64,000 nt of DNA from Candidatus Omnitrophota bacterium (GCA_016783355.1 JADHWR010000001.1:6072-70071); one strand, 5' to 3'; positions 10,501-64,000 are shown, counted from the stretch's first letter. A program made the numbers and translations. The notes: a model not told the origin generated them from the sequence alone.

Positions 10501-11980
10501 TATCCAAGGCAGCATTAGCCTGCGCAATCACCTTTTGCTCATCCAGATCAGCAGTTAGGTATTCAATCTGCTTGGTTGCTTTTGCGTCTTTTACTTTGCG
10601 ATAAGGTGTCTCTAATAAACCGAGGGGGTTAATCCGGGCATATGTAGTCAAGGAAGTAATCAAGCCGATGTTTGGACCCTCGGGGGTTTCTATGGGACAG
10701 AGACGGCCATAATGTGAAGAATGTATATCTCTTACCTCAAAACTGGCGCGCTCGCGCGAGAGGCCACCCGGACCCAAAGCACTCAGCCGGCGTTTATGGG
10801 TTAACTCCGCTAATGGATTTACCTGATCCATAAACTGCGAGAGTTGACCGCGTGTAAAAAAATCATGGATTTGATTGGAAAAAATTTTGAAATTTATGAG
10901 ATGGTAAATGGTTAAGTCTTCTGTCTCGCCCATCAATGTCAATCTTTCTCGAATATTACGTTCAATTCGCGCAAGCCCAATGCGCACCTGATTCTGAGCT
11001 AATTCTGCTACAGTACGTACCCGCCGATTACCCAAATGGTCGATATCATCAATCTTTCCTTTTCCCTCTTTTAAACCGATAAGATAGTTAATAACCTTAA
11101 TTACTGTTTCGTAATCAAGAACTCTTTTATCCAGAGGGGTATCCATTCCTAATTTGCGGTTGAGGATAAATCTGCCGCAGCGACTGAGGTCATACCGGCG
11201 CACATCAAAAAATAAGCGGTAAAATAACTCGGCTGCTGCCTCGGGCGTAACCGGCTCACCCGGCCGCATCTTACGGAAAAAGTCTAATAGAGCTTCTTCT
11301 TTACTCTTTGTGTAATCCCTTTGCAGTGTATTGTTAATTACTGTATTATCTTTTCCAAAAAAACTTTGAATTTCTTCATCAGAGCTTAAACCTAATATAC
11401 GCAGGATCTGTGTGACGGGAAATGTCCGTCGACGATCAATAACTGCCAATATGGCTTCTGAAATATCATATTTAAATTCCAACCATGTTCCCCGATAAGG
11501 AATAATCCTTCCATAAAAAATGCGCTTTCCTGTTATATGCGTTTCCTCTTCAAAAGAAACACCGGGAGAACGATGAAGTTGAAAGATGACAACACGCTCA
11601 TCGCCATTAATAATAAAAGAGGCAGTAGGGGTCATCAAAGGAACCTCACCAAAAAACACATCCTGTTCTAATGTCCTGCTGGCAGAGATAAATCTAAATC
11701 TTACCCATAGTGGTGCAGCATAAGTCATTCCTCTTGTTTTACATTCCTCAATATCATATTTTGGATTACCCAATACATAATTGATAAACTCAAGCCGTAT
11801 GTGCCGGCTCGGTGTTTCAATAGGAAAGAAATTAAGAAACTCTTCCTGTAATCCTGAGCATCGCCTCTCTGAAAAAGGAACATCTTTTTGCAAAAAATCC
11901 TTATAGGCCTTGAGCTGATGCCTCAGAAGATTGGGTACTGAATATACTTCCTTTAGTTTTGCAAAACTCTTTCTCTTCAA
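4580..11980 (-). CDS. rpoBC: DNA-directed RNA polymerase beta-beta' fusion (RpoB-RpoC in one continuous 2466-codon ORF)
   Basis: The N-terminal ~1150 aa are RpoB and end ...[20 protein letters not shown]. The RpoC N-terminus follows with no intervening stop (...[41 protein letters not shown]...), and the ORF ends with the RpoC C-terminus. Confidence 0.9.
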
Positions 11981-11993
11981 CTTATGTCCTCAC

Positions 11994-12383
11994 TTATTTC
12001 AATTCTACGGTTGCTCCTGTTGCTTCTAATTTCTTCTTTAATTCCTCTGCTTCTTCTTTGGATACGTCCTCTTTTATTGGTTTAGGCGCAGAATCCACTA
12101 AATCCTTAGCCTCCTTCAGGCCAAGACTGGTTACCGCACGAACCTCTTTTATGACAGATATCTTATTGCTGCCTACACTGCTCAATACTACTGTAAATGT
12201 TGTCTTCTCTTCCTCTGCCGCAGCGCCTGCAGTAGTTGCTGCACCAGTATCTGCTGCGCCTGCAACAAGAGGGATATTTCCTGATACACCGAATTTCTCC
12301 TCCAGTGCCTTTACCAACTCGGAAAGCTCTAAAACACTCATTCCTCCAATTGATTCCATCAACTCTTCTACTTTTGTGGCCAT
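11994..12383 (-). CDS. rplL: 50S ribosomal protein L7/L12
   Basis: A 129 aa ORF reading [33 protein letters not shown] with an Ala-rich hinge and L12 C-terminal domain. Confidence 0.95.
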
Positions 12384-12397
12384 TTTTTACCCCCTTT

Positions 12398-12494
12398 AAT
12401 GAGTCCGCCAAAGTTCGTTGGCGGACGAATTAATCCCGCTGAGTGTGCCAAAATTATAAAATAGAATTTTGGCACATATTACGAAGCGGGATAA
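12398..12494 (-). ncRNA. Structured leader repeat, copy 1 of 3 (about 100 nt), directly upstream of the rplL ribosome-binding site
   Basis: Its AATGAGTCCGCCAAAGTTCGTTGGCGGACGAATT hairpin is identical to that in copies 2 and 3. A long nested hairpin follows (ATCCCGC...GCGGGAT enclosing GTGCCAAAATT...AATTTTGGCAC). The inner stem differs from copies 2 and 3 by compensatory changes. Confidence 0.6.
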
Positions 12495-12496
12495 GT

Positions 12497-15672: not shown

Positions 15673-16326
15673 TTATTCTAAGGCCTTTAAAAGCTCCTCA
15701 CCGAACTCTTTAGCTGCAAATGGACCAGCGGCAGTAATAATATTGCCATCTCTTACTACAGCTCCCCCTGTATAGTTAGCTCCTGCTTGTTGTAACTTCC
15801 CTGCTTCACTTGACCAAACAGTGGCAGATTTACCTTTAAGTAAGCCTGCCTTCGCCAGGATTACAGGAGCAATACAAATTGCGCCAACGATTTTATTTGC
15901 GGCAGAGGCATCCAATGCAATCTTATGGGCTTTGGCATTATCCCAATAAACGCTTGCACCACTGCCACCTATAAAAACCACAGCATCAAAATCAAAAGGA
16001 CTTAGCTCTTCAATCGTTAAATCAGGCTTTATTTTTGCTCCTAACATGCCCTGGGCATAATCTTGCGTAAAAGCAGCAACCTTAACTTCACAGCCTGCAT
16101 CCTCTAAAACCTGTTTGGGAATAAGTAGCTCTTCATCTCTGAAATTTTTCTGCGCAATAATCATCACTACTTTTTTCATCTCTTGGCCTCCTGCCTGCCC
16201 CGTTAGAAACTTTGTTTTTAACGGGGCCTGCGCCCAAACAACCTTTAAGAAAAAGGCACAAAAAAATCCAACCATTAAGCAAAAAACTGTTGTCCATTTC
16301 TGAAGTAGAACAAGATTCTTATTCAA
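15673..16326 (-). CDS. DJ-1/PfpI family protein. The start is ambiguous: either the long ORF has a signal-peptide-like N-terminus, or translation starts at the internal MKKVVMII
   Basis: The class I glutamine amidotransferase-like DJ-1 core has the nucleophile-elbow context ICIAP. A family-1 mini-element lies in the N-terminal extension at 16198-16226. Confidence 0.8.
   Translation of the reverse strand: MNKNLVLLQKWTTVFCLMVGFFCAFFLKVVWAQAPLKTKFLTGQAGGQEMKKVVMIIAQKNFRDEELLIPKQVLEDAGCEVKVAAFTQDYAQGMLGAKIKPDLTIEELSPFDFDAVVFIGGSGASVYWDNAKAHKIALDASAANKIVGAICIAPVILAKAGLLKGKSATVWSSEAGKLQQAGANYTGGAVVRDGNIITAAGPFAAKEFGEELLKALE
16198..16226. mobile_element. Family-1 miniature palindromic element (29 bp) flanked by CCTG direct repeats, in the 5' part of the DJ-1/PfpI ORF
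   Basis: The sequence is CCCCGTTAGAAAC-TTTG-TTTTTAACGGGG. CCTG occurs at 16194-16197 and again at 16227-16230. Confidence 0.6.
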
Positions 16327-26267: not shown

Positions 26268-26913
26268 TTAAAACATCCCAAATCATCTTAACCTGTTTTT
26301 TTGTCTCAGATTTCGTCCCACTATTATCAATAACAAAATCAGCTAAATTTAGCTTCTTTTTTAATGGCATCTGCAAATTTATGCGCTTTTTAATTTCCGA
26401 AAGGCAAAATCCCTTTTTTTTAAGGCGCAATTTTTGAATGTCTGACCTTGCCCTTACGGCAATTATCTTATCCACGATTCTCGCCAGTCCTGCTTCGATT
26501 AATAAGGGTGCATCAATTATAATAAACTTAAAATTTCGGGCCTGCTGAATCTGTATTTTAATTTCCTTAATTATTCCTGGATGCAGAATTTCGTTGAGCT
26601 TCTTTAGGGAATGCTTATTTCTGAAAGCACTCTTAGCTAACCTTTTTCGATTAATCTGTTGATTCCTGGAAAGTATCCTTTCCCCAAATGCCGCAAGAAC
26701 CCGCCTGTAAGCCCCGTTCGAAGTAAGGCGCCCAAGGCGACTGCCCCGCCAAATTCCGTGGCGGGGACTTCTAACGGGGTAAGCCTTTTTCTTGGGCTCG
26801 ATTAACTGATGCGCAATCCTATCTGCATCAATAATCTGAGCGCCTAATTGTTTAAAATAGTGCGCGCACGTCGTCTTCCCTGTGCCAAAACTGCCGGTAA
26901 TACCAACAATCAT
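26227..26913 (-). CDS. coaE: Dephospho-CoA kinase. The likely start is [15 protein letters not shown]. It carries an in-frame family-1 element
   Basis: P-loop [12 protein letters not shown] and CoaE family sequence. About 24 aa ([23 protein letters not shown]) are encoded by the inserted palindromic element. Confidence 0.85.
26712..26779. mobile_element. Family-1 palindromic element (68 bp) inserted in frame in coaE
   Basis: Termini CCCCGTTCGAAGT...ACTTCTAACGGGG with an inner CCCCGCC...GGCGGGG hairpin. TAAG direct repeats flank both ends, and element plus 4 bp equals 72 bp, which is 24 codons. Confidence 0.7.
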
Positions 26914-28295
26914 TTTAAAAGGTGGTGGTAAAGCCCAATATAATTCCGGGCGGCAGTGGTCCAAGAAAAATTACAACCCATACCTCGCTTCATTAAAGAA
27001 AGCCGCCTGTTTTTATCTTTAAAAACTAAAAGCATCTCTTTGATCTTTGCCACGAGGGCCGATGGCGAATACTGATCAAAAATAAAACCATTCTTTTTAT
27101 CAATTGTATCAGTAAGGCCGCCTGTCTTAAAAACCAATGGAATTGTACCATATTTCAGGCTAATCATCTGCCCCAAGCCGCAGGGTTCGTATTTGGAAGG
27201 CATCAGGAATATGTCGCAGCCAGCATATATCTTATGAGCTAATACGTTGTCGAACTTAAGAAAGGTGCGTAACTTTTTAGGAAACTTTCTGGCTAATCTT
27301 TCTAAAATTCGGTGATAATTCAGCTCTCCTGTTCCCAGAATAACCAATTGAAGCGGAAGTGAACATATCTCCTCCATTGCCTCACTTAAGATATCAAAGC
27401 CCTTCTGCTGAGTGAGTCGAGAGACAATACCCAAAAGAGGAATATCGGACCTTGAAGGCAGCTTTGATAATTTGCATAGGGCCTCCTTATTTTTAACTTT
27501 GCCTTCAATATTGTCTTTGTCATAATTCTTGAGAATAAATTTATCGGTCTTTGGATTCCAAAGCTGATAATCTAAACCATTCAATATACCAAATAGATTA
27601 TCTCGCCGCCTGATCAAGACCCCTTCCAAGCCACAACCAAACTCCTTCGTTTGTATTTCTTTGGCATAAGTAGGACTTACTGTATTTATAGCGTCAGAAA
27701 AAACAATCCCGGCCTTTAATAGATTGACCTTACCGTAAAACTCCAATGCCTCCATATTAAAAAGCGACCAATCTAAGCCTAATTTAGGAAATTCCTCTTT
27801 ATTAAATAGTCCCTGATAGGCAAGATTATGAATTGTCAATAGTGTCTTTATTCCTTTATAAAATTCATCACCTTGAGCGGTTGTTTTTAAATATACGGGA
27901 ACAAGCGAACTCTGCCAGTCATGACAATGAAGTATCTGAGGCCTGAATTCTATTTCTTTTAAAAGTTTTAATGCCTCTCGGCAAAAATAAGAGAATCGGT
28001 TGAGATTATCGGGAAAGTCACCTTCTTTTTCTCCGTAGAGTCCTGGGCGATTAAAAAACTCTTCTTTCTTAATAAAATAAACCTTAATCTTTTTTCCTAT
28101 GGTTGTTGTAGAAATTTTCGAATTTAAGTCCTCAATTTTAAATCCTGCTGCCTTTGTCTTTTTGTAAAAGGGCATAATCACGATAATCTCATGTTTTAAT
28201 CTCTCCAAAGGCAAAGGCAGAGCCCCGACTACATCAGCAAGACCGCCGGTCTTGGCAAAAGGCACAACCTCTGATGCAAACATTGCGATTCTCAC
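26910..28295 (-). CDS. glgA: Glycogen synthase (ADP-glucose type)
   Basis: A 461 aa ORF reading MRIAMFASEVVPFAKTGGLADVVGALP, the GT5 GlgA N-terminal motif. Confidence 0.92.
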   Translation of the reverse strand: MRIAMFASEVVPFAKTGGLADVVGALPLPLERLKHEIIVIMPFYKKTKAAGFKIEDLNSKISTTTIGKKIKVYFIKKEEFFNRPGLYGEKEGDFPDNLNRFSYFCREALKLLKEIEFRPQILHCHDWQSSLVPVYLKTTAQGDEFYKGIKTLLTIHNLAYQGLFNKEEFPKLGLDWSLFNMEALEFYGKVNLLKAGIVFSDAINTVSPTYAKEIQTKEFGCGLEGVLIRRRDNLFGILNGLDYQLWNPKTDKFILKNYDKDNIEGKVKNKEALCKLSKLPSRSDIPLLGIVSRLTQQKGFDILSEAMEEICSLPLQLVILGTGELNYHRILERLARKFPKKLRTFLKFDNVLAHKIYAGCDIFLMPSKYEPCGLGQMISLKYGTIPLVFKTGGLTDTIDKKNGFIFDQYSPSALVAKIKEMLLVFKDKNRRLSLMKRGMGCNFSWTTAARNYIGLYHHLLK

Positions 28296-30964
28296 TTAAT
28301 CTCCTCCATCTCTAACCAATTCTTACCCTTCTTTATTACTACCTTTATGGGAACAGAAAGGGCTAAGGCATTCTCCATCTCATAAGATATCATCTCAATT
28401 GCCCTCTGCAATTGCCCGTTCGGTATCTCAAAAATAAGTTCATCGTGAATTTGCAGGAGGAGCTTCGCCGAAAGCGTTCTTTCCTCAATCTTCTGATATA
28501 TCTTAATCATCGCCATCTTAATTAAATCTGCTGCCGAGCCTTGGATGGATGAATTTACTGCCTGCCTTTCGGCAAATGCACGAACTGCGGCATTCTGATG
28601 ATTAATGTCAGGGAGATAGCGATGGCGACCTAAAATAGTTGTTACAAAATTGTCTTTTTTTGCCTTTTCAATCTGCCTGGCGATATAATCTTTTACTCTG
28701 GGATACCTTAAAAAATAGGCATCAATAAAGCGAGTTGCCTCCTCCCTTGAAATTCCTAATTCCCTTGCTAAACCAAAGGAAGATAGACCATAAATAATTC
28801 CAAAATTTATGCGCTTTGCTACTTCTCGCATCTGATCATTGACAATAGAATCCTCTGTGCCATAAACTAAAGAGGCAGTGGCACGATGTATGTCTTTGCC
28901 TTGCGAAAAAGCATCAATCAGCACCTTCTCGCCTGATAAATGTGCCAGAACCCTTAATTCTACCTGAGAATAATCAAAAGAGACCAAAAAATTATCCTCG
29001 CAACTCGTGATGAAAGCCTTTCGTATCTTGCGCCCTAACTCTGTCTTAATCGGTAGATTTTGCAAATTAGGATTAGAGGAGCTCAGTCTTCCCGTCTGTG
29101 TTCCTGTTTGATTGAAGAATGTATGAATGCGCAGGGTTTTTTTATCTGCCAGTTCCATTAAGGCATCGATATAAGTAGATTTTATTTTACAAAGCATACG
29201 ATATTCCAATAAAATTTTTGGTAAGGGATGCTGGCTTGCTAAGACAGCAAGAACCTCCTCATCGGTAGAGGCGCCTGTCTTTTTCTTTTTTATCACCGGC
29301 AGTTTTAATTTCTCAAAAAGAACCTGACGTAGCTGTAAGGGTGAGTTGATATTAAACGGCCCACCAGCAAGATGATAAATTTTACTGACCAGGCCTTTGC
29401 GCTTTTCTTCAATTTCAATGCCCAAGGCTTTAAGAAACTCTAAATCAAGCTTTATACCCTCTAATTCCATCTGCGCTAAAACAGGAATCAAGCGAATCTC
29501 TAAGTCGCAAAAGATGCGAAAGCTATCTTTAAGCTTTAGTTCTTTCTCTAAAACCGACTTAAGTGTTCCAATAACAACACAAACCTCAAGTGGACTTATC
29601 TTTCCTGCCCCGTTCGAAGTCCCCGCCGTAGGCGGGGCAGTCGCCCCGGGCGTCTTACTTCGAACGGGGCCTGCATCCAAAATTCTCTTCAGATAATCCC
29701 AGCACAGGCTCTCAAGACTATAATCAGACCGGGACGGATTCAAAAGATAAGCAGCAATCATCGTATCAAAACCTAACCCTTCTAGGGCGATATTATGCCG
29801 GGCTAATCGCAAAAAGATATCTTTTAGATTGTGGCCGATTTTCTTAATCTTTGGGTCTCTAAGGACAGGTTCAATGCTCTTTAAGGAGCCTTTCTCTAAT
29901 TCTAAAAAAGAATCACTCTCTGGAAGATAAACTGTCAACCCCTCCTCATTCATATAGAGAATCAACTCACCTGCCTGCCTAAACTGATCAATCCCGGCAA
30001 CCTGCCTGTTGGCACTTCGACGGAGTTTATCCCGAGCGAAGTCGAGGGACTCAGTGCTAGCACTCCGACTTCGCTCAGTGCCAACCCTGAGCTTGTCGAA
30101 GGGTTGCTCAGGTAAATCTTTAAGAAATTTTTTAAATTCTAACTCACGAAAGATTTCATAAAGATTTCTATAGTCAGGCTTCTTTATCTTTAAACTTTGC
30201 GCATCAAATTCTATATCTAAATCTGTCCTTAATTGTGCAAGATAATGACATAGTTTTATTTGCTCAATCTTTTCTTTCAAGCGAGAACGAAGCTTTTGTT
30301 CTTTTATCTGATCCAAATTCAATAAGAGATTTTCCAGAGACTTAAATTTATCCAGGAGCTTGGTGGCGGTCTTTTCTCCTATGCCAGGAACACCCGGGAT
30401 ATTATCAGCTGTATCTCCGGCAAGAGCAATAAAGTCAGCAATTCTGCCGGGTAAAAATCCGTATTGGCGCTTAACCCCTGCCACATCATAAATTATCTTT
30501 TTGTCTTTATGAGGATGCAGAACAATAACTCCCTCATCCACTAATTGCAAGATATCCTTATCAGCGCTGACAATCATTATTGTAAAATCCTTCTCTTTTG
30601 CCTTCCTGGTTAATGTCGCAATAACATCGTCTGCTTCAAAGCCCTCCTTCTCAAATATATTAATTCCAAAGGCCTTGATTATCTTTTTAATGTAAGGCAG
30701 TTGAGTCACTAAATCCGCAGGCATAGGAGGACGTTGTATCTTGTAACGCGCAAATTCTTTTTGGCGAAATGTGTGCCTTGAGACATCAAAACATACACCC
30801 ATATACTGCGGATTTATCTCTTTTAAAACCTTATTCAGAAAATTCACAAAGCCATAAATAGCATTGGTACAAAGACCGTAAGAGGTCGCAAGCCCCCTTA
30901 TGGCATAATAGGCGCGGTAACAGATGCCGTTGGCATCAATAAGTACTACTTGGGCTTTATCCAT
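28292..30964 (-). CDS. polA: DNA polymerase I (5'-3' exonuclease plus polymerase domains) carrying two different in-frame repeat insertions
   Basis: An 890 aa ORF with 5'-nuclease N-terminal sequence, Klenow-like motifs (..DYSQVELRVLAHLS.. ..QIHDELIFE..) and two inserted peptide segments that match the repeat families. Confidence 0.92.
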   Translation of the reverse strand: MDKAQVVLIDANGICYRAYYAIRGLATSYGLCTNAIYGFVNFLNKVLKEINPQYMGVCFDVSRHTFRQKEFARYKIQRPPMPADLVTQLPYIKKIIKAFGINIFEKEGFEADDVIATLTRKAKEKDFTIMIVSADKDILQLVDEGVIVLHPHKDKKIIYDVAGVKRQYGFLPGRIADFIALAGDTADNIPGVPGIGEKTATKLLDKFKSLENLLLNLDQIKEQKLRSRLKEKIEQIKLCHYLAQLRTDLDIEFDAQSLKIKKPDYRNLYEIFRELEFKKFLKDLPEQPFDKLRVGTERSRSASTESLDFARDKLRRSANRQVAGIDQFRQAGELILYMNEEGLTVYLPESDSFLELEKGSLKSIEPVLRDPKIKKIGHNLKDIFLRLARHNIALEGLGFDTMIAAYLLNPSRSDYSLESLCWDYLKRILDAGPVRSKTPGATAPPTAGTSNGAGKISPLEVCVVIGTLKSVLEKELKLKDSFRIFCDLEIRLIPVLAQMELEGIKLDLEFLKALGIEIEEKRKGLVSKIYHLAGGPFNINSPLQLRQVLFEKLKLPVIKKKKTGASTDEEVLAVLASQHPLPKILLEYRMLCKIKSTYIDALMELADKKTLRIHTFFNQTGTQTGRLSSSNPNLQNLPIKTELGRKIRKAFITSCEDNFLVSFDYSQVELRVLAHLSGEKVLIDAFSQGKDIHRATASLVYGTEDSIVNDQMREVAKRINFGIIYGLSSFGLARELGISREEATRFIDAYFLRYPRVKDYIARQIEKAKKDNFVTTILGRHRYLPDINHQNAAVRAFAERQAVNSSIQGSAADLIKMAMIKIYQKIEERTLSAKLLLQIHDELIFEIPNGQLQRAIEMISYEMENALALSVPIKVVIKKGKNWLEMEEIK
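29608..29669. mobile_element. Family-1 palindromic element (62 bp) inserted in frame in polA
   Basis: Perfect TIRs CCCCGTTCGAAGT / ACTTCGAACGGGG with an inner CCCCGCCGTAGGCGGGG hairpin. CCTG direct repeats sit at 29604-29607 and 29670-29673. The element encodes GPVRSKTPGATAPPTAGTSNGAG. Confidence 0.75.
30008..30113. repeat. Family-2 palindromic repeat (about 100 bp) inserted in frame in polA. It encodes DKLRVGTERSRSASTESLDFARDKLRRSANRQ
   Basis: Imperfect palindrome GAGCGAAGTCGAGGGACTCAGTGCTAGCACTCCGACTTCGCTC plus the CCTGAGCTTGTCGAAGGG core shared with the array at 31007-31198. Confidence 0.65.
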
Positions 30965-31006: not shown

Positions 31007-31198
31007 CCTCGACTTCGTCCCTCGACTTCGTCCCTCGACTTCGTCCCTCGACTTCGTCCCTCGACTTCGCTCGGGACGACCCTGAGCTTGTCGAAGGGTC
31101 GCTCGGGACGACCCTGAGCTTGTCGAAGGGTCGCTCGGGACGACCCTGAGCTTGTTGTCGAAGGGTCGCTCAGTGTCAATCCTGAGCTTGTCGAACGG
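31007..31198. repeat. Tandem array of family-2 units upstream of polA: five copies of a 13 bp unit then three copies of a 32 bp unit. This is not a CRISPR array
   Basis: CCTCGACTTCGTC appears five times. CGGGACGACCCTGAGCTTGTCGAAGGGTCGCT appears three times, followed by a partial CCTGAGCTTGTCGAACGG. There are no unique spacers. The array generates the spurious 68 aa ORF at 30973-31179. Confidence 0.8.
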
Positions 31199-31207
31199 AT
31201 TGAATTA

Positions 31208-32152
31208 TTAGTTTTTAGGGGTTAATTCCGTGGCTATCTTTTCTAAAGTCTGCTTTGCAGTTACAATATCATCCTGCTCATAGAATCTGATCGCATCTTG
31301 AAACTTGGCCTGCATAATAGCGATGTGTTCTTGTTTTTGTTTTTCTTTAATCTCTTTATTTATTTTATCTATTAAGGTCAAAAATGAGTCTCTGTCTGAC
31401 GGGTCCAAAGAAATGGCTAACACCAGTGCATTTTTTGCTTCCTCTATTTTGTGCTCTTCATATAAATCATCAGCCAGTTCCTTAAGTTTTTGAATCTCTT
31501 TTAACTCTGTTAATCTGACTGCCTTTTTATGAATGGCGAGCTCACGCACTAAACTAAGCGTCTCTTCCTCTATCAACTCCTGCTGAAGAGAAGGCTGAGT
31601 CTCTGCGATGGCCTGGCGTCTGCGTTTCGCCCACTCCACCCAAGACTCACCGGGAATTCCCAATTCTATACGTTTTTTCCAATAATCAAAAGCCTTCTTT
31701 AGTTCTCTTTTTTGCTCATAAAGCATAGCTAAATTTGAATATAAATTATGATACTGGGGATTTAATTTTAGTCCAACTAAATAAATCTTCTCTGCCCTAT
31801 CAAGTAAACCCTTGGCCTCAAACATAATTCCTAAATCATTGTAAGCAATAACATAAGCAGGGTCTAACTCAATTGCCTTCTGATAACAGACTGTGGCACT
31901 ATCTAAATCACCGCGCTGCTGAAACTGCAAACCTTGACTTCGAAGAAGACGTGCCTCTTTTTGAAAAGTAGTTTGTTTCTGCGCAAAAAGTGAGGTTGGG
32001 AAACAGAATAAGTTAATTGTTATAAATAAATTAATTGCTACAAAAGAGATAATTCCCTTTGTAAACCCCGTTCGAAATTCCTCCAATCTTTGCTTAAGGC
32101 TTAATGATACATAAGTAGCCGAGGCTTTTGAATCTATCTTAAATCTATGCAT
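31208..32152 (-). CDS. TPR-repeat protein with an N-terminal transmembrane/signal segment. The annotated start codon lies inside family-1 element A
   Basis: A 314 aa ORF with a hydrophobic segment (IISFVAINLFITINLFCF) and several TPR-like helices (AYNDLGIMFEAKG...). Confidence 0.7.
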   Translation of the reverse strand: MHRFKIDSKASATYVSLSLKQRLEEFRTGFTKGIISFVAINLFITINLFCFPTSLFAQKQTTFQKEARLLRSQGLQFQQRGDLDSATVCYQKAIELDPAYVIAYNDLGIMFEAKGLLDRAEKIYLVGLKLNPQYHNLYSNLAMLYEQKRELKKAFDYWKKRIELGIPGESWVEWAKRRRQAIAETQPSLQQELIEEETLSLVRELAIHKKAVRLTELKEIQKLKELADDLYEEHKIEEAKNALVLAISLDPSDRDSFLTLIDKINKEIKEKQKQEHIAIMQAKFQDAIRFYEQDDIVTAKQTLEKIATELTPKN

Positions 32153-32171
32153 ATCTAAATTTCGAACGGGG
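32046..32171. mobile_element. Family-1 element A (126 bp) with perfect 13 bp TIRs. TAAA flanks it on both sides
   Basis: CCCCGTTCGAAAT at 32046-32058 and ATTTCGAACGGGG at 32159-32171. TAAA is at 32042-32045 and at 32172-32175. Confidence 0.65.
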
Positions 32172-32433
32172 TAAACCCCGTTCGAAATAGGAAACGCTTT
32201 AATCTATCGTTCAAATAGCGTTTACCCTTTCCAGACTTCAGGTGTTTTTCTCTACTCATTGCATCATATTTATTTAGACAGGCTTCATAATAAATAAGCT
32301 TAAAGGGGCCTCTATTCTTAGTAGAAGACACCTTTCCTGAATTATGCTCACTAAAGCGTTTCCGTAAATCATTCGTTAAGCCTGTATACCATTTTTTATC
32401 TTTCTGGCTTTGAATTACATAAACATAATGCAT
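32155..32433 (-). CDS. Small GIY-YIG (URI-domain, UPF0213/YhbQ-like) nuclease, 92 aa
   Basis: MHYVYVIQSQKDKKWYTGLTNDLRKRFSEHNSG... shows the GIY...YIG spacing, the conserved Arg, and Glu in YYEAC. The last 9 codons (RTGFTPFEI) are read from TIR sequence. Confidence 0.8.
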   Translation of the reverse strand: MHYVYVIQSQKDKKWYTGLTNDLRKRFSEHNSGKVSSTKNRGPFKLIYYEACLNKYDAMSREKHLKSGKGKRYLNDRLKRFLFRTGFTPFEI

Positions 32434-32454
32434 TGCTTGTTATTTCGAACGGGG
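32176..32454. mobile_element. Family-1 element B (279 bp). Perfect 14 bp TIRs enclose a complete GIY-YIG nuclease ORF, and TAAA direct repeats flank both ends
   Basis: CCCCGTTCGAAATA at 32176-32189 and its inverse TATTTCGAACGGGG at 32441-32454. TAAA is at 32172-32175 and 32455-32458. The GIY-YIG ORF (32155-32433) starts 21 bp inside the right TIR boundary. Confidence 0.6.
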
Positions 32455-39282: not shown

Positions 39283-40440
<1,158 letters not shown>

Positions 40441-43287: not shown

Positions 43288-45378
43288 CTATAGTTTTCTT
43301 GCTATCTTCTCAATTTTATAGCCTTCCATTATATCGCCTATTTTATAATCAGAAAAATTACCTATGGATATGCCGCACTCATAACCTTCAGATACCTGAG
43401 AAACCTCATCTTTAAAACGCCGAAGATTGCTAATCTTTCCGCTAAAGATAGTAGTGTTGTCTCTGATTATATCTATATTGAGCGTGCGCAAGATCTTACC
43501 CTTAGTTATAGTACACCCCGCCACAACACCACTTCGCGAGAGATTAAAAACCTGCTTCACGCGTGCCTGTCCAAAAGATACCTTTTTTATCTTTGGGCTT
43601 AACAACCCTTCTAAAGCCGCCTTTATCTCCTCGACTAATTCATAAATTATATTGTATGTCCTTACCTCCACCTGCTCTTTTTTAATTAATTCCTTTGCTC
43701 GCTCTTCTATATTTATATGAAAACCCAAGATTAGCGCATCAGAGACAGACGCCAGCATTACATCTGAAGTGTTAATTAAGCCCACTCCTTTATGGGTTAT
43801 CTTAAATTTTACCTCTTTTGTCTCTAATTTTATTAGAGAATCCCGCACCGCCTCTAATGAGCCGAATGTGTCTGCTTTAATAATAATCTTCAGCTCTTTA
43901 AGAACACCGTTTTTTATTTCCTGATGTAAATCCTCCAGCGAAAACCGATGTGGTGAAATATTCCTTTTTTCCTTTGTCTCGCGCAGCGAGATAAGTGCTC
44001 TTGCCCCTTTCTCGTCCTTGACAACAAAAAATCTCTCTCCTGCCTCAGGCACGGATTCAAAACCTAAAATTCCCACAGGCTGACTGGCAGTAGCTTCCTC
44101 AACTCTCTGGCCACAGTCATTAAATATTGCCTTTACCTTTGCTAAGTTCTTCCCCGCAACAAGTAGATCATTAAGATGTAATTTTCCATTCTGCACCAAT
44201 AAAGTTGCCAGAGGACCCCTGTTTGGGTCCTGTCTTGCCTCAATAACAACACCCCTTGCTATCTGATTATAATCTGCTTTCAATTCTAACATTTCTGCCT
44301 CTAAAAGAATCATCTCTAATAATTCATCTATGCCCTGACCGGTTTTGGCAGAAACCTCTACCGTTACGGTCTTGCCTTGCCACTCCTCAGGAACTAAACC
44401 AATATCAGCAAGTTGCTTCTTTACCCTATCTACGTTAGCCTGAACTCGATCAACTTTATTTATGGCGACAATTATAGGAACCTCAGCATCTCGGGCATGG
44501 TTAATTGCCTCAATTGTCTGAGGCATAACACCATCATCAGCAGCAACCACTAAAACAACAATATCTGTAATCTGTGCGCCCCGTGCACGCATTGCCGTAA
44601 ATGCCTCATGACCGGGTGTATCCAAAAATGCAATCTTACCCTTATCTAAATTAACCTCATATGCACCGATGTGCTGGGTTATGCCTCCATGTTCAAAATC
44701 AACGACCTTTGTCTTTCTAATCATATCCAAAAGGGAGGTCTTACCATGGTCAACATGACCCATAAATGTTACTACGGGTGGACGAACATTTAAATCCTGA
44801 GGCTGGCTTGATACCTCATGTAAGGAAAGCAGGCGTTCTTCTAAAGAGGGAGCCTGCTTGACTTTAAAGCCAAAATTCTCACAAACCTGCTCTACTTCAT
44901 CTTTTCCTAAAGATTGGTTAATGTTGGCTAGGATTTTTAACTTTAAAAGTTCCTGCATTAGCTGCGAGAGTTTAATTTGAAGCTTAACCGCTAAATTCTT
45001 AACAGAAATAGGGAAATCTAATTCTAATACCTTAGCTTGTGGCGCCTCTTCAACCAAAATTGCTTGTAGCTGCTGGGGTTGAGGCTCTAAGGTCTTTGCT
45101 TGAATTTTAGACTTGCGGGAGACTCTTCTCTTTGGTTTAGGGGCTATTTCTTTCCTCTTGATTTGCTTTTTGCCTGGCTCTTTTCGTAGGACCGCAGGCT
45201 TTTTTGCTTTCCTTGCCCCGTTTGAAATCCCTCGCCTAACGGCGGGGGCAGCTACCTTTGGTGTCTTACTTCGAACGGGGTTTGGCTTTGTAGAGGAAGC
45301 CCTTAAGCGAGTCTTTGAAGCCTTTCTCACTTTAGTTTTTAATGCTTTTGGTTTCTTAGGTTTTTTTATCTTTTTCAT
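43288..45378 (-). CDS. infB: Translation initiation factor IF-2 with an in-frame family-1 element in the basic N-terminal region
   Basis: The GTPase domain ([13 protein letters not shown]...) and C-terminal domains are typical. The N-terminal segment NPVRSKTPKVAAPAVRRGISNGA is encoded by the palindrome. Confidence 0.92.
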   Translation of the reverse strand: MKKIKKPKKPKALKTKVRKASKTRLRASSTKPNPVRSKTPKVAAPAVRRGISNGARKAKKPAVLRKEPGKKQIKRKEIAPKPKRRVSRKSKIQAKTLEPQPQQLQAILVEEAPQAKVLELDFPISVKNLAVKLQIKLSQLMQELLKLKILANINQSLGKDEVEQVCENFGFKVKQAPSLEERLLSLHEVSSQPQDLNVRPPVVTFMGHVDHGKTSLLDMIRKTKVVDFEHGGITQHIGAYEVNLDKGKIAFLDTPGHEAFTAMRARGAQITDIVVLVVAADDGVMPQTIEAINHARDAEVPIIVAINKVDRVQANVDRVKKQLADIGLVPEEWQGKTVTVEVSAKTGQGIDELLEMILLEAEMLELKADYNQIARGVVIEARQDPNRGPLATLLVQNGKLHLNDLLVAGKNLAKVKAIFNDCGQRVEEATASQPVGILGFESVPEAGERFFVVKDEKGARALISLRETKEKRNISPHRFSLEDLHQEIKNGVLKELKIIIKADTFGSLEAVRDSLIKLETKEVKFKITHKGVGLINTSDVMLASVSDALILGFHINIEERAKELIKKEQVEVRTYNIIYELVEEIKAALEGLLSPKIKKVSFGQARVKQVFNLSRSGVVAGCTITKGKILRTLNIDIIRDNTTIFSGKISNLRRFKDEVSQVSEGYECGISIGNFSDYKIGDIMEGYKIEKIARKL
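45216..45280. mobile_element. Family-1 palindromic element (65 bp) in frame in infB
   Basis: CCCCGTTTGAAAT...ACTTCGAACGGGG termini with an inner CCCTCGCC...GGCGGGGG hairpin. Element plus 4 bp equals 69 bp. Confidence 0.7.
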
Positions 45379-46549: not shown

Positions 46550-46630
46550 GTTCTTTGTCTAAATATGGGTAAATATGGGGACGGTTCTCGCTATCTTATT
46601 GTAATACAACAAGATAAAAATAAATTTTCG

Positions 46631-46805
46631 CCACAAAGTCGCCACAAAAACGTTGACGACCCGCCAAAGTATTGTGGCGGGATTTGCACCAGAAAGTCGC
46701 CACAAAGCGTTGGCGACCCGCCAAAGTATTATGGCGGGATTTGCACCAGAAAGTCGCCACAAAGCGTTGGCGACCCGCCAAAGTATTATGGCGGGATTGG
46801 CGCAT
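46631..46805. repeat. Three tandem copies of a 57 bp double-hairpin repeat between rimP and nusA, plus a degenerate fourth hairpin
   Basis: Each unit is GTCGCCACAAAGCGTTGGCGAC + CCCGCCAAAGTATTATGGCGGG. Copies start near 46631, 46691 and 46748. The repeats generate overlapping spurious ORFs on both strands. Confidence 0.8.
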
Positions 46806-46853
46806 CCGCCGGTTCTTATTGGAGGCGAATCCGCCAATTATTTTGGCGGAAGC

Positions 46854-56232: not shown

Positions 56233-56922
56233 CTATTTTATATTCTCCACCGGCTCTTCAAGTTCGATAATTTCAATTTCCTCCTCCCCTTCTAAAACTG
56301 TTGCTGGTTCTTCTAAATCTTTTGTCTCTTTGACCTTAATCATCTTCGGCAGAATTACTACTTCCACACGACGATTTAGCTGCTTACCTTCTTTTGTGTC
56401 ATTAGAGGCTACAGGCTGATACTCACCGTAGCCAACTGCCGAAGCACGCTGGGGCGAAATTCCCTTTTTATCAACAAGATAATGCAATGTACTTAAAGCT
56501 CGCGCTGTGGATAATTCCCAATTCGACTTCCAACCAGAATATCTAATTGGTTCGTTATCAGTATGTCCTTCAATACCAATAAGATATTGCGACACATTTT
56601 CTTTTAAAACACGGGCGACCTTATCTAAAATTGGAAAGGATTCTGAGCGTAGCTTCGCTTTGCCCGAATCATACAAGATATCTGCCAAAAAGGTAATCAC
56701 CAAACCTCTTTCAGCCATCTCCAACCGTACTTCTTTACGAGCAATCTCCTCTTTGAGACGCTGCTGAAGCAACTGGTGGACGTTTCTTAAATATCCTATT
56801 TCTTGCGAAAGTTCATCGATCTTCTCAATATCTGAACGTCTACCCGCTTGAAATTTAAACATGCAGCCCGCTAAACTTACTGTCATAAAAAATACAGCCA
56901 ATACTAATGCTTTTTTCTTCAT
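56233..56922 (-). CDS. OmpA/MotB-domain lipoprotein
   Basis: Lipobox LAGC after a signal peptide, and a C-terminal OmpA-like peptidoglycan-binding domain (..GHTDNEPI...NWELSTARA...NRRVEVVI). Confidence 0.8.
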   Translation of the reverse strand: MKKKALVLAVFFMTVSLAGCMFKFQAGRRSDIEKIDELSQEIGYLRNVHQLLQQRLKEEIARKEVRLEMAERGLVITFLADILYDSGKAKLRSESFPILDKVARVLKENVSQYLIGIEGHTDNEPIRYSGWKSNWELSTARALSTLHYLVDKKGISPQRASAVGYGEYQPVASNDTKEGKQLNRRVEVVILPKMIKVKETKDLEEPATVLEGEEEIEIIELEEPVENIK

Positions 56923-56937
56923 CGCTCCTACCTCCTC

Positions 56938-57031
56938 AATGAGTCCGCCAAAGTTCGTTGGCGGACGAATTGATCCCGCCGAATGCTCTAAAATTATCAG
57001 GGAGAATTTTAGAGCAGTTTATGAGGCGGGG
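56938..57031 (-). ncRNA. Structured leader repeat, copy 2 of 3, directly upstream of the ribosome-binding site of the OmpA-like gene
   Basis: AATGAGTCCGCCAAAGTTCGTTGGCGGACGAATTGATCCCGCCGAATGCTCTAAAATTATCAGGGAGAATTTTAGAGCAG...GAGGCGGGG. Confidence 0.6.
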
Positions 57032-57116
57032 TATGTACATTATTTGGGTCATTCCATAAGTCTCGTCCTTACTTATTTTAAATTATATCTATACCTTCGT
57101 CAATATCTATAAATTT

Positions 57117-61225: not shown

Positions 61226-62358
61226 TTCAAGAATACCTCCTGACTAGCCTTTAAGCCAACACCTAATTCAAATTTATAACCCATCTGATTCAATACTTTC
61301 TCAAGACAAGCAATACAGACAATTAGATCGAATTCATCAATATAGCCCATATGGGCAATGCGAATAATCTTACCTTTCAATTGCGCCTGACCTCCGGCAA
61401 TGACCACGCCATAGGCATCGCGCATCGTCTTTACCAGTTTCTGCCCGTCAATACCCACAGGAACACAGATTGCTGTAACTGCATCAGAGGGAGCAGTTGA
61501 TGCAAAGAGCTCCAATCCCAATGCCCTCGCTGCAGCTCGGCTCGCCTGCGCCATTCTCTTATGACGCTGAAAGATATTTTCCAAGCCCTCTTCCTTGAGC
61601 ATCTTTAGTGCTTCATTCAAGGCAACAATCAAAGATATCGCCGAAGTAAATGGTGTATCAGTCTTATCGAGGGCTTTTTTTGCCTGCTTTAAGTCAAAAT
61701 AATACTTGGGAGATTTTGCTTGCTCAATCAATTTCCAGGCTTTAGCACTTACAGAGAGAAAAGCAAGTCCTGGGGCAACCATCAAGCCCTTCTGTGAACC
61801 GGCAACTACTACATCTACACCCCACCTATCAGTCTGCAAATCAACTGCACCTAAACCACTGATTGCATCAACTACTAATACAGCGCCGCTTTCCCTGACA
61901 ATTTTGCCAATTGTTTCGATATCATTAACCACCCCTGTAGAAGTTTCGCAAAGCGTTGTAAATACTGCTTTGATTCTCGATTCTCGATCAATTCTCGATT
62001 TTATTTCCTTCGGCTCCACTGCCTTACCCCACTCAACCTTGATCACCTCACAGTTTACTCCGAAACTTCGACAGATTTCTGTCCAGCGCTGGCCAAATTT
62101 TCCACCCTCAATTGTGACCACCGTATCTCCTGACGAAAGTAAATTACAGACTGCCGCCTCCATTGCACCTGTCCCGGAAGAAGCAAAGATAAATACATCA
62201 TTTTTTGTCTGAAAAATATATCTTAAATCCTCCTCTACTTCTTTCAAAACTGCCTGAAATTGTGGCGTGCGATGGTGAATTATTGGACGCGCTGCAGCTG
62301 CCATTACCTGTGGCGGTAAAGGCGTTGGCCCTGGTGTCAATAAATAACTTTTCTTCAT
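61222..62358 (-). CDS. Class V aminotransferase, possibly a phosphoserine or serine-glyoxylate aminotransferase
   Basis: A 378 aa PLP fold-type I class V enzyme ([10 protein letters not shown]...) whose start overlaps the serA stop by 4 nt (ATGA), immediately downstream. Confidence 0.7.
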
Positions 62359-62972
62359 GGATTATCTCCTTGTTCCTTAGTGATAATCACCTGATCAACC
62401 AATCCATATTCTTTTGCCTCTTGCGCAGACATAAAATAATCGCGGTCTAAATCCTTTTGAATCTTCTCTATTGGCTGTTTGGTATGTATTGAAAATATCT
62501 TATTTATGCGGTCACGCAACTTCAAAATCTCCTTTGCATGTCGTGAAATATCCTCTGCCGCGCCCTGAATTCCTCCCCACGGTTGATGAATCATCACCCT
62601 CGAATTGGGTAAAACAAGGCGCTTGCCCTTTGTTCCCGCACATAAAAGCAAAGCCGCCATACTTGCTGCCTGGCCAACACAATAAGTAGCGACATCAGGT
62701 TTGACAAACTGCATTGTATCATATATAGCTAAGCCTGCTGTAACAGAACCACCTGGACAATTTATATAGATACTTATCTCTTTATTTACATTTTCCATTT
62801 GCAAGAAAAGCATCTGAGCAATAACAAGGTTAGCAATATTATCATCAATTGGTGAGCCAATAAAAATGATGCGGTCCTTAAGAAGCCGTGAGTAGATATC
62901 ATAAGCGCGTTCATAACCACGGGCTGTCTGTTCAATCACCATGGGAACCAAGGTTTGATTTTTTATCTGCAT
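62355..62972 (-). CDS. clpP: ATP-dependent Clp protease proteolytic subunit
   Basis: A 205 aa ORF with the catalytic Ser context GQAASMAA and the His/Asp region. Confidence 0.93.
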
Positions 62973-62983
62973 TGTGACCTCCT

Positions 62984-63085
62984 CAATGAGTCCGCCAAAG
63001 TTCGTTGGCGGACGAATTGATCCCGCCGAATGCTCTAAAATTATCCCCTGCGGGGAGAATTTTAGAGCAGCTTATGAGGCGGGAT
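62984..63085 (-). ncRNA. Structured leader repeat, copy 3 of 3, directly upstream of the clpP ribosome-binding site. A TATAAT box sits just upstream on the minus strand
   Basis: It matches copy 2 but carries an extra apical CCCCTGCGGGG hairpin. On the minus strand, TATAAT lies about 7 nt before the element's 5' end. Confidence 0.6.
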
Positions 63086-63116
63086 ATACATTATTATAGT
63101 AATCTCTTAAAACTAA

Positions 63117-63189
63117 AGCGGGAGACGGGCTTCGAACCCGCGACATTCACGTTGGCAACGTGATGCTCTACCAACTGAGCTACTCCCGC
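63117..63189 (-). tRNA. tRNA-Gly (anticodon GCC)
   Basis: Cloverleaf GCGGGAGTAGCTCAGTTGGTAGAGCATCACGTTGCCAACGTGAATGTCGCGGGTTCGAAGCCCGTCTCCCGCT. Confidence 0.85.
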
Positions 63190-63216
63190 ATTCCTTTTCG
63201 CAACCTCTCCTTCTAT

Positions 63217-63302
63217 TGCCGCGGGAGAGACTCGAACTCTCAAGTCTTTGTCAGACATTAGGTCCTAAGCCTAACGCGTATACCAAATTCCGCCACCGCG
63301 GC
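63217..63302 (-). tRNA. tRNA-Leu (anticodon TAG), a class II tRNA with a long variable arm
   Basis: An 86 nt sequence, GCCGCGGTGGCGGAATTTGGTATACGCGTTAGGCTTAGGACCTAA...GAGTTCGAGTCTCTCCCGCGGCA, with anticodon loop CTTAGGA. Confidence 0.8.
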
Positions 63303-63331: not shown

Positions 63332-63730
63332 TGAGCCACCCGCGACTCGAACGCGGCACACCCGCCTTAAACATTTTTGTTAACTGTATGTCGCCATACA
63401 GATCAGACTATCCCATCCCCCTCACGCTTATCCTTAAAAAAGAAAGCGATGGGGGTCTCGATTATAGTCGTTGAACCTTCCCAGTACTTATTTGCTAAGA
63501 TAATTTCTGATTCAAATAAATGCCGGGCTTGGCTGCAGATTGTCTGCATTTAAGAATTTTTACCCCCGCCACAATACTTTGGCGGGTCGCCAATGCTTTG
63601 TGGCGACAGACATAAAGGGTATCTTAAAATACTCAGACTTTCCCGCAATTTACGAGATTCTCACTATTGATTTCTCAATAATGGCCCCTTTTTCGCGAGG
63701 GCGGTGCTCTACCAGATGAGCTAGTGGCCC
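63332..63730 (-). tRNA. Split tRNA gene (73 nt mature, anticodon inferred UUU, so Lys) interrupted in the anticodon loop by a 326 nt group I intron
   Basis: Exon 1 (63698-63730) is GGGCCACTAGCTCATCTGGTAGAGCACCGCCCT. Exon 2 (63332-63371) is TTTAAGGCGGGTGTGCCGCGTTCGAGTCGCGGGTGGCTCA. The two halves form a complete cloverleaf with a GGGCCAC/GTGGCTC acceptor and a CCGCC/GGCGG anticodon stem. Confidence 0.7.
63372..63697 (-). ncRNA. Group I intron within the tRNA-Lys(UUU) anticodon loop
   Basis: The 5' exon ends in U and the intron ends in G. Intron segments resemble the Tetrahymena P4 (AAAUUGCGGGAAAG), P6 (GCAGCCAAG) and P7 (ACGACUAUAAUCG...GAUAGUCUGAUC) regions. Its P5 region contains a copy of the rimP-nusA double-hairpin repeat. 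Confidence 0.7.
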
Positions 63731-64000
63731 ATTTCTATCTTAAATTTGTAATTATTGCCAAAGAACAAAATCTATATCTATTTCTGATAAGATTTTAATA
63801 ATAAATCTAAGATTTTTCTCTTTGAAATTTTTCTTTTCCAAATTCCATTCTTTCTGCTCGCATTTATATAAATTCTAGGCGAAAAATTTATCTCTTTAGC
63901 AAATCTTAATAAGTTTTCCCTTTTGGAGATTTCTATCTCAGTGCCCCTTTTATTAATTCTGCTCTTTATACCAAAACCATTTAATAAATCTTTTATCTGT

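Follow-up and report, generated by a model that had tools for sequence, protein, structure and literature searches.

A composite palindromic repeat directly before ribosome-binding sites in a Candidatus Omnitrophota genome

Studying a stretch of 64,000 nucleotides from a Candidatus Omnitrophota genome (the window), together with contigs of other genomes and metagenomes, reveals a structured element which recurs directly before ribosome-binding sites (RBS). We consider it likely that this element is a dispersed palindromic repeat of the REP, BIME, RPE or hairpin-MITE kind, of which it would form a species-restricted subfamily. The original prediction was a conserved regulatory 5' UTR motif, but at the orthologous sites in related Omnitrophota the element is absent. 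The element is composed of a smaller two-hairpin module, whose stems are CCGCC/GGCGG and which is found in both orientations and also in other organisms.

Copies and architecture of the element

Copies upstream of rplL, an OmpA-like gene and clpP had been predicted, and all three were found at these places (Table 1). Pfam assigns the products of the downstream genes to L7/L12, the OmpA family and ClpP, and the L7/L12 protein of the window is identical to NCBI MBL7080965.1; the ENA assemblies which pertain to this genome are ERZ24794679, ERZ24794672 and ERZ24794676. The window is a segment of 41% GC in which every sizeable gene lies on the minus strand, and the three copies, 105-111 nt in length, all lie on this gene strand as well. 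Because the genes are encoded on the minus strand, a long nested hairpin (H1) comes first in the mRNA and a 24-nt hairpin (H2) lies next to the RBS. Therefore the hairpin which had been described as an identical 5' hairpin is indeed identical in the three copies, but in the mRNA it is the 3' hairpin and adjoins the RBS. The corresponding 24-mer GTCCGCCAAAGTTCGTTGGCGGAC (plus strand) has three exact occurrences in the window, compared to 0.00 expected in shuffled sequences.

Table 1. Positions of the composite element, its parts and the neighbouring genes in the window.
Feature	Position	Strand	Remarks
Copy 3 of the composite element	62977..63096	-	5' of clpP; covariance model 119.9 bits
Copy 2 of the composite element	56930..57046	-	5' of OmpA-family gene; covariance model 126.3 bits
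Copy 1 of the composite element	12390..12496	-	rplJ-rplL spacer; covariance model 123.3 bits
H2 hairpin in copy 3	62990..63013	-	mRNA sense GTCCGCCAACGAACTTTGGCGGAC
H2 24-mer in copy 2	56943..56966		identical to that of copy 3
H2 24-mer in copy 1	12403..12426		identical to that of copy 3
clpP	62355..62972	-	downstream of copy 3; ATG 4 nt past GAGGAGGT
OmpA-family gene	56233..56922	-	downstream of copy 2
rplL	11994..12383	-	downstream of copy 1
Tandem basal units	46647..46850	-	three 57-nt repeats in the rimP-nusA spacer
Basal two-hairpin unit	63565..63607	+	antisense inside group I intron 63384-63707 (-)

In the order of the mRNA the element consists of H1, a linker YAAUUC, H2 (GUCCGCCAACGAACUUUGGCGGAC) and UCAUURA, directly followed by the RBS core and, 4-8 nt further, by the ATG. 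H1 comprises an outer stem (AUCCCGCC/GGCGGGAU), an internal loop, an inner stem of 12 bp and an apical loop. H2 has a stem of 9 bp and a loop of 6 nt and is enclosed by a third short helix, which is formed by the linker and UCAUURA. Copy 3 consists of a 5' extension (TAATAATGTATAT), H1, the linker, the 24-nt H2 and TCATTGA, after which GGAGGT follows; the extra apical hairpin which had been noticed in this copy is present (CCCCGCAGGGG, within H1). Copy 2 has the same layout without the apical insertion and with one C-A mismatch in the outer stem. Copy 1 belongs to a diverged subfamily which lacks the 5' extension and carries six compensated pair changes. It starts 4 nt past the stop codon of rplJ, ends at the RBS of rplL and so fills the spacer.

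The position immediately upstream of the RBS holds for the three window copies and also for a fourth copy. This copy was found by comparing the six-frame translation of the element with a protein database, which gave a single match, to a spurious ORF of 83 aa (P0121). It is located on a contig of 3.2 kb from the same ENA sample as a contig with this clpP locus (coverage 14.8x for the contig of copy 4 versus 12.8x), it scores 128 bits with the covariance model, and its last nucleotides are UCAUUGAGGAGGU, after which 5 nt follow up to the start codon (ATG) of a prepilin-like gene (MKKGFTLLELI...). The RBS GAGGAGGT is common to copies 2-4 and rare among the other genes of the window. Copies 2-4 also share the 5' extension, (T/A)AATAATGTA(T/CA)AT, and show only few differences, mostly at unpaired positions, in addition to the 6-nt apical insertion of copy 3. 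This near-identity, which includes most of the loops, points to recent copying. Copy 1 is about 80% identical and every change in its stems is compensated. In total the element has at least four copies, counted from about 95 kb of this organism, and the 64 kb of the window harbour 13 CGCC-type hairpins including the three composite copies.

A covariance model built from the copies, as had been proposed, recognises those of the window with 120-126 bits (E about 1e-30), and with the filters switched off it finds no further full copy there. Among 30 retrieved loci full copies do exist, but only in the same organism. In Rfam nothing matches the element at the gathering threshold in the window, and at E up to 10 there are only chance-level matches.

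On the gene strand the minimum free energies predicted for the three window copies are -41.6, -43.6 and -54.5 kcal/mol, which corresponds to z-scores from -5.8 to -8.0 relative to shuffled sequences; the antisense strand folds at least as well. All three differences in the inner stem are compensated on the partner strand, as had been observed before. Three further compensated pairs can be found, one in the outer stem, one in the apical part and one in the helix closing or surrounding H2. Comparing copy 1 with copies 2-4, six pairs are changed on both sides and none on one side only, and 99.3% of the cells are paired versus 35-49% in controls with slid partners. All six compensated changes represent one single split, that of copy 1 from copies 2-4, which are paralogous copies, and the same pattern would be expected equally of a hairpin repeat in DNA; selection on a structure in RNA would account for the complete compensation just as well. 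The mismatch of copy 2 would be a U-G wobble on the other strand and the sense strand of one basal unit contains a T-G pair; as a guide to the strand of action the wobble pairs are uninformative.

Copies 2 and 3 are present on contigs of three independent assemblies, two of which end at or near copy 3. The assemblies break inside the element or 100 nt away from it, and on one contig (L014) the sequence begins at model position 51. No target-site duplication is common to the flanks of the four copies, and clear terminal inverted repeats were not found; the ends are only weakly similar (CCGCCTCA versus CCTCCTCA).

Orthologous loci and the basal hairpin module

At the rplJ-rplL junction four related lineages have no element; their spacers measure -8, 19 or 24 nt, and on the contig of the closest relative the 43 nt which are available contain none. 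The L7/L12 proteins of these lineages are 72-76% identical, and the covariance model gives no match at their rplJ-rplL loci. Because in the relatives rplJ and rplL either share an overlap of 8 nt or are separated by 19-24 nt, copy 1 represents an insertion. The purA-ompA junction was compared in three lineages, where spacers of 102-332 nt lack the element and contain a conserved TTGACC...TATAAT promoter. The gene order clpP, serA, purA, ompA, then rimP and nusA, is kept in the relatives. In the two relatives which cover the junction (L027 1542-3019, L029 1248-2761) tig lies directly before clpP and the element is missing, while clpP of the window is preceded by tRNA-Leu and tRNA-Gly (62973-63302). 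Therefore a rearrangement breakpoint coincides with copy 3. Judged from these comparisons the composite element is a lineage-specific insertion. We also considered that the RBS GAGGAGGT might be borne by the element, but in the relatives ompA and clpP have a native GGAGGT and rplL is preceded by AAAGGAGG; for this reason the 3' boundary of the element can be placed only to TCATTRA, after which the RBS core follows.

Next to rplL, rpoB and rpoC form a single ORF of 2466 aa (4580-11980, minus strand), while in two relatives (L015, L023) both genes are separate and adjacent. Either the two genes are truly fused, or an error of sequencing or assembly at their junction has joined them. In Helicobacter a true rpoB-rpoC fusion exists.

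In relatives (L026, L027) there is an overlap of 4 nt between rimP and nusA, whereas a spacer of 304 nt with hairpin repeats separates these genes in the window (46550-46853). It contains three tandem units of 57 nt in sense orientation, each consisting of ATCCCGCCA-loop-TGGCGGGT followed by GTCGCCAACGCTTTGTGGCGAC, as well as further CCGCC hairpins. The order of the two hairpins corresponds to the outer stem of H1 plus H2, and the basal H1' hairpins have stems of 7-8 bp. The older core module would be CCCGCCA-loop-TGGCGGG followed by GTC(C)GCCAA-loop-TTGGC(G)GAC.

The exact H2 24-mer is also found on eleven contigs of other organisms, six from genomes and five from metagenomes, with different flanks; contigs of the viral collection do not contain it. 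These eleven contigs belong to Omnitrophota or are labelled Planctomycetia, and their GC content is 0.44-0.64. None of them harbours the composite unit and in none does the 24-mer lie next to a start codon. In four of the eleven a small CCCGCCA-loop-TGGCGGG hairpin directly precedes H2, and often the 24-mer is located beside other CCGCC hairpins. The contexts are diverse. H2 is found next to tRNA genes and, in one tRNA with a group I intron, at the 3' end of this intron; the hairpin pair of H2 is present as an insert of 59 nt in one terminal loop of a Moco riboswitch, where CCUCC immediately precedes it (L010 1387-1582); and another copy is located 15 nt upstream of a c-di-GMP-I-GGC riboswitch (L002 2813-2967). 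Both riboswitch-associated copies lie on the strand opposite to the orientation in the window. In another member of the Omnitrophota a near-identical basal unit splits the D-loop of a tRNA-like sequence (L023 6810-6875).

Across these loci the CGCCA/TGGCG core of the stem is constant, the outer stem positions covary (CCCGCCA/TGGCGGG, GTCGCCA/TGGCGAC, TCCGCCA/TGGCGGA and CTCGCCA/TGGCGAG) and the loops vary. In the window copies a CGTC overlaps with H2 at its 5' end, and in 8 of the 11 other loci H2 is followed by GACG. On the plus strand a CCTCC or CCCCC is located 6-8 nt before H2, in each of the four copies and also in L010 and L007; this spacing is based on small numbers, and the adjacency to the RBS is confounded by selection. 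According to the original prediction, further copies without a preference for start codons and with stems broken without compensation would speak against a leader. The related copies indeed show no such preference, but their stems are unbroken.

The group I intron which contains the antisense unit of Table 1 (Rfam RF00028, 88 bits) interrupts a tRNA gene (63340-63745, minus strand). The anticodon stem of this tRNA is itself CCGCC/GGCGG, and a LAGLIDADG ORF begins just upstream of this tRNA and continues beyond the end of the window. Another locus (L012 7009-7854) was grouped with this intron-interrupted tRNA. At L023 7320-7520 an H2-like hairpin is found in a segment of about 150 nt; this segment lies between duplicated copies of the 3' end of tRNA-Trp and resembles what an integration would leave behind. 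Elsewhere in the window tandem repeats of 13 nt and 32 nt are located at 31007-31198; a tRNA-Pro reported by ARAGORN within them (31068-31153, plus strand) is without Rfam support and probably false.

Proposed origin, possible function and alternative explanations

The TATAAT box which had been noticed before copy 3 is present (63098-63093, minus strand, 7 nt before H1), but the promoter scan reports nothing at this place because a -35 box is missing. With copy 3 lacking this box and the predictions differing from copy to copy, the claim that the element forms the very 5' end of the transcript is weakly supported. Copy 1 is operon-internal; upstream of copy 2, at a distance of about 35-40 nt, there are promoter-like sites, and before copy 4 a TTGACA-17-TATATT is located at about 10 nt. 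A -10-like TAATAAT is found at the 5' edge of copies 2-4, and from the element alone no promoter is predicted. The RBS of copies 3 and 4 is predicted to be mostly unpaired (with probabilities of 0.8-0.98 for the unpaired state); per base, copy 1 has values of 0.05-0.79 and copy 2 of about 0.3-0.6. We also considered a switch which sequesters the RBS, as the 5' arm CCGCCUCA can pair with UGAGGAGG. As a general switch this was rejected because in the ensemble the RBS is mostly open in copies 3 and 4 and the prediction is inconsistent in copies 1 and 2.

In the scheme which we propose, the H1 loop of the older module would have gained a nested palindrome of 12 bp, and copy 3 one more nested inside it. 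Copies of the resulting unit of about 105 nt would then have reached at least four short spacers, always directly 5' of an RBS. Its stems would stay paired because the hairpin itself is the thing which is recognised or tolerated, either as single-stranded DNA during copying or as transcribed RNA. That the element is a repeat, has the described structure with compensated pairs, was inserted in this lineage, stems from an older module and is found in either orientation is shown by the sequences. We infer that the element is mobile; the mechanism as well as any effect on expression are proposed here in the same sense.

Once transcribed, the unit would place two very stable hairpins before a mostly unpaired RBS and probably acts, secondarily, as a barrier which stabilises or insulates the mRNA. 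Hairpins of 5' stabilisers are protective and REPs are barriers for exonucleases; by analogy the cistron downstream of the unit could be protected. The element may thus have been co-opted to stabilise the mRNA or to act in translation. Copy 1 is predicted to be, probably, an uncoupler of the rplJ and rplL cistrons, where translational coupling would be replaced by an independent initiation site. As Liang, Rudd and Deutscher reportedly described in 2015 for REPs near stop codons, a hairpin like that of copy 1, which starts 4 nt past a stop codon, may reduce the expression of the upstream gene. The stoichiometry of L10 to L7/L12 is 1:4 or more, and a putative reduction of upstream-gene expression by copy 1 would fit it. 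Furthermore, H1 would be long enough to serve as a substrate of RNase III, as it is known for Correia elements (PMC10969869).

All of the four composite copies point in the same direction and adjoin the RBS core, which is more regular than would be expected of random insertion. In part this regularity is due to the very short spacers and to the fact that all genes of the window lie on one strand; in compact spacers a viable insertion has to touch the upstream stop codon and the downstream RBS, as copy 1 does. Copy 2, however, is placed exactly at the RBS core although a leader of about 100 nt was available. The constant orientation, the placement of copy 2 and the CCTCC at the two unrelated loci L010 and L007 are compatible with a target preference or with selection as a useful leader. 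Taken further, the composite unit would be a mobile 5' leader targeting the RBS, and H2, a 24-nt hairpin identical to the base across Omnitrophota and Planctomycetes-like genomes, would be a cross-phylum recognition site of a conserved enzyme or RNA-binding protein of the PVC group; we regard this as quite unlikely. Such a portable leader could have arisen by transposition of single-stranded DNA which targets the complement of the RBS (CCTCC on the antisense strand), and a second possible route is repeated selection of a hairpin-hairpin-SD leader which boosts stability and translation of abundant proteins.

A dedicated cis-acting 5' leader, which stabilises the mRNA or tunes the translation of highly expressed genes, as the original prediction has it, is in our opinion unlikely. 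In such a leader the 5'-proximal pair of hairpins would block 5'-end-dependent decay and present the RBS; it may have originated as a repeat and now be kept for its function. Such a role would fit with the sense orientation of the four copies, with the distance of 0-1 nt between their end and the RBS core, with predicted energies of -42 to -55 kcal/mol and an RBS that is predicted to be mostly unpaired in copies 3 and 4, and with six compensated pairs and none uncompensated. The products of rplL, the ompA-family gene and clpP are typically abundant, the fourth gene being prepilin-like, and the TATAAT of copy 3 would put the start of transcription at the foot of the first hairpin. However, the element is not conserved at the orthologous sites of the relatives, and the loops and linkers of copies 2-4 are conserved like the stems, which argues for recent copying and not for selection. 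In addition, the predicted accessibility of the RBS is inconsistent among the copies, the promoter evidence is weak and differs by copy, the module also occurs antisense and inside other RNAs, and no Rfam family matches. Of the marks by which a cis-regulatory RNA may be recognised the element shows covariation, whereas orthologous presence and a match to a curated family are missing.

Very doubtful, too, is a role on the level of DNA, as a structural or protein-binding site (BIME-like, or an operator for a dimer) which acts on supercoiling or domain organisation. BIMEs bind gyrase or IHF, and CGCCA/TGGCG stems conserved across genomes with variable loops, a module in both orientations and its clusters and tandem arrays are consistent with such a site. 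The outer stem positions, however, covary symmetrically, which indicates intrastrand pairing rather than two independent half-sites, a candidate binding protein was not identified, and the nested growth at the apices fits hairpin biology. As GC-rich stable hairpins in spacers between co-directional genes, for one of which the scan flags a terminator-like site (63058-63044), the copies might be taken for intrinsic terminators or attenuators, but we consider this extremely improbable. Neither of the main hairpins is followed by a U-tract, the sequences after them being AUCAAUUCG and UCAUUGAGG. The single call in copy 3 lies inside H1, where it corresponds to the apical hairpin with the descending arm of the inner stem as its "tail", copy 2 received no call, and termination between rplJ and rplL would be deleterious. 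The chance of an artefact by assembly or chimerism, finally, is practically negligible. Contigs do end at or near the element, but such breaks are the expected product of a true repeat, three ENA assemblies contain identical copies with the same flanks, and a 78-kb contig of an NCBI MAG encodes exactly the same RplL and OmpA-family proteins.

The dispersed palindromic repeat which we prefer concerns uncultured bacteria, the Omnitrophota, which have these palindromic hairpin modules in common with Planctomycetes-like genomes. The modules widen junctions which otherwise overlap (rplJ-rplL, rimP-nusA), they are located in introns, in the loops of riboswitches and in tRNA-like sequences, and metagenome assemblies are fragmented by them. 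Annotators should take this as a warning not to describe recurring structured spacers of this kind as new riboswitch-like motifs. If the position next to the RBS is targeted or selected, the element would be a natural mobile leader which rewires translation and mRNA stability of core genes, and the balance of L10 to L7/L12 would, if this is true, be one of its effects.

Comparison with known repeats and leaders

In the literature on palindromic repeats of Omnitrophota and Planctomycetes we found nothing that describes this element. REP, BIME and REPIN elements are known from Enterobacteria and Pseudomonas; their palindromes are about 20-40 nt long and are dispersed in high number, mostly outside of genes. 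REPs are short GC-rich imperfect palindromes of intra- and inter-operon spacers, often paired or clustered and able to fold as RNA (PMC3733652). Families of REPs can occur in several species, and superfamilies with a CGTC or GTAG tag have been defined (Di Nocera et al. 2013, PMC3733652). Like REPs and BIMEs, the element consists of short imperfect palindromes which are able to form stem-loops. However, the CGTC tag of REPs is unpaired, while here GTC/GAC is base-paired within the stem of H2, and stems and loops differ from those of the four published CGTC families (PMC3733652). The composite unit further differs by its nested hairpins and by its position 5' of genes, as REPs are mostly located 3' of genes (PMC3733652). 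A cognate RAYT gene flanked by the hairpins of the element was not found; the only RAYT-like gene has TTGGAAGTCGGACTTCCAA flanks.

This RAYT-like gene for a Y1 transposase (L025 2216-2923) belongs to the same organism and lies 2 kb from copy 4. The protein matches Pfam Y1_Tnp (PF01797) with 37.9 bits and NCBIfam REP_Tyr_transpos with 39 bits, compared to a cut-off of 80, and a relative in the PDB could not be found by sequence. Hairpins of the TTGGAAGTCGGACTTCCAA type flank the gene on both sides (L025 2186-2965) and a third copy lies within the ORF, so that the arrangement looks like a REPtron, a RAYT gene between its own REPs. In the window the TTGGAAGTCGGACTTCCAA hairpin is absent.

Correia elements, which are MITEs of Neisseria, are about 100-150 nt long, lie mainly just upstream of genes and are co-transcribed with them (PMC10969869). 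Their long hairpins can be cut by RNase III, and they can supply promoter boxes (PMC10969869). They possess terminal inverted repeats of 26 nt and a TA target duplication (PMC10969869). The element described here differs in that it has neither terminal inverted repeats nor a target duplication.

RPE and the small dispersed repeats of cyanobacteria are palindromes which occur in spacers, in genes for structured RNAs and in tolerated loops. The element resembles them, as its units can be nested and are absent from the orthologous sites of relatives. The differences are the phylum and the sequences; an insertion into protein genes is suspected here only for a second hairpin family. RPE are also mentioned elsewhere (PMC3733652).

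This second palindromic family, CCCCGTT(A/C)GAA...TTC(G/T)AACGGGG (CCCCGTTAGAA...TTCTAACGGGG), has 10 matches versus 0.4 expected. In the window it is located at 16198-16226, 26744-26790, 29600-29680, 32066-32454, 39867-39895 and 45200-45290, and outside the window at L023 6748-6800. One copy lies 5 nt before the RBS of the gene starting at 16179. Several copies lie in long ORFs, among them the probable N-terminus of infB (43288-45378) and an ORF at 28292-30964, with a CCGCC hairpin nested in the loop. This suggests in-frame intragenic insertions, as in Rickettsia palindromic elements.

Palindrome-associated elements (PATE) derived from IS200/IS605 have subterminal hairpins, insert next to a fixed short target and are mobilised as single-stranded DNA by Y1 transposases. 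The element shares with them the hairpin ends, the lack of inverted terminal repeats and target duplication and the presence of a Y1 transposase in the genome. Moreover, its copies have one orientation, in a region with all genes on one strand. It differs in that the transposase is here flanked by other hairpins.

For the 5' UTR of ompA from E. coli, Emory, Bouvet and Belasco are said to have described in 1992 a stabiliser which consists of two hairpins followed by the RBS. The layout hairpin-hairpin-RBS is the same, and one of the host genes of the element belongs to the OmpA family. The leader of E. coli is restricted to a single locus, conserved among orthologs and unrelated in sequence, while the element described here is present in several copies. 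For any co-opted role of the element, the E. coli ompA leader is the model of how it may work.
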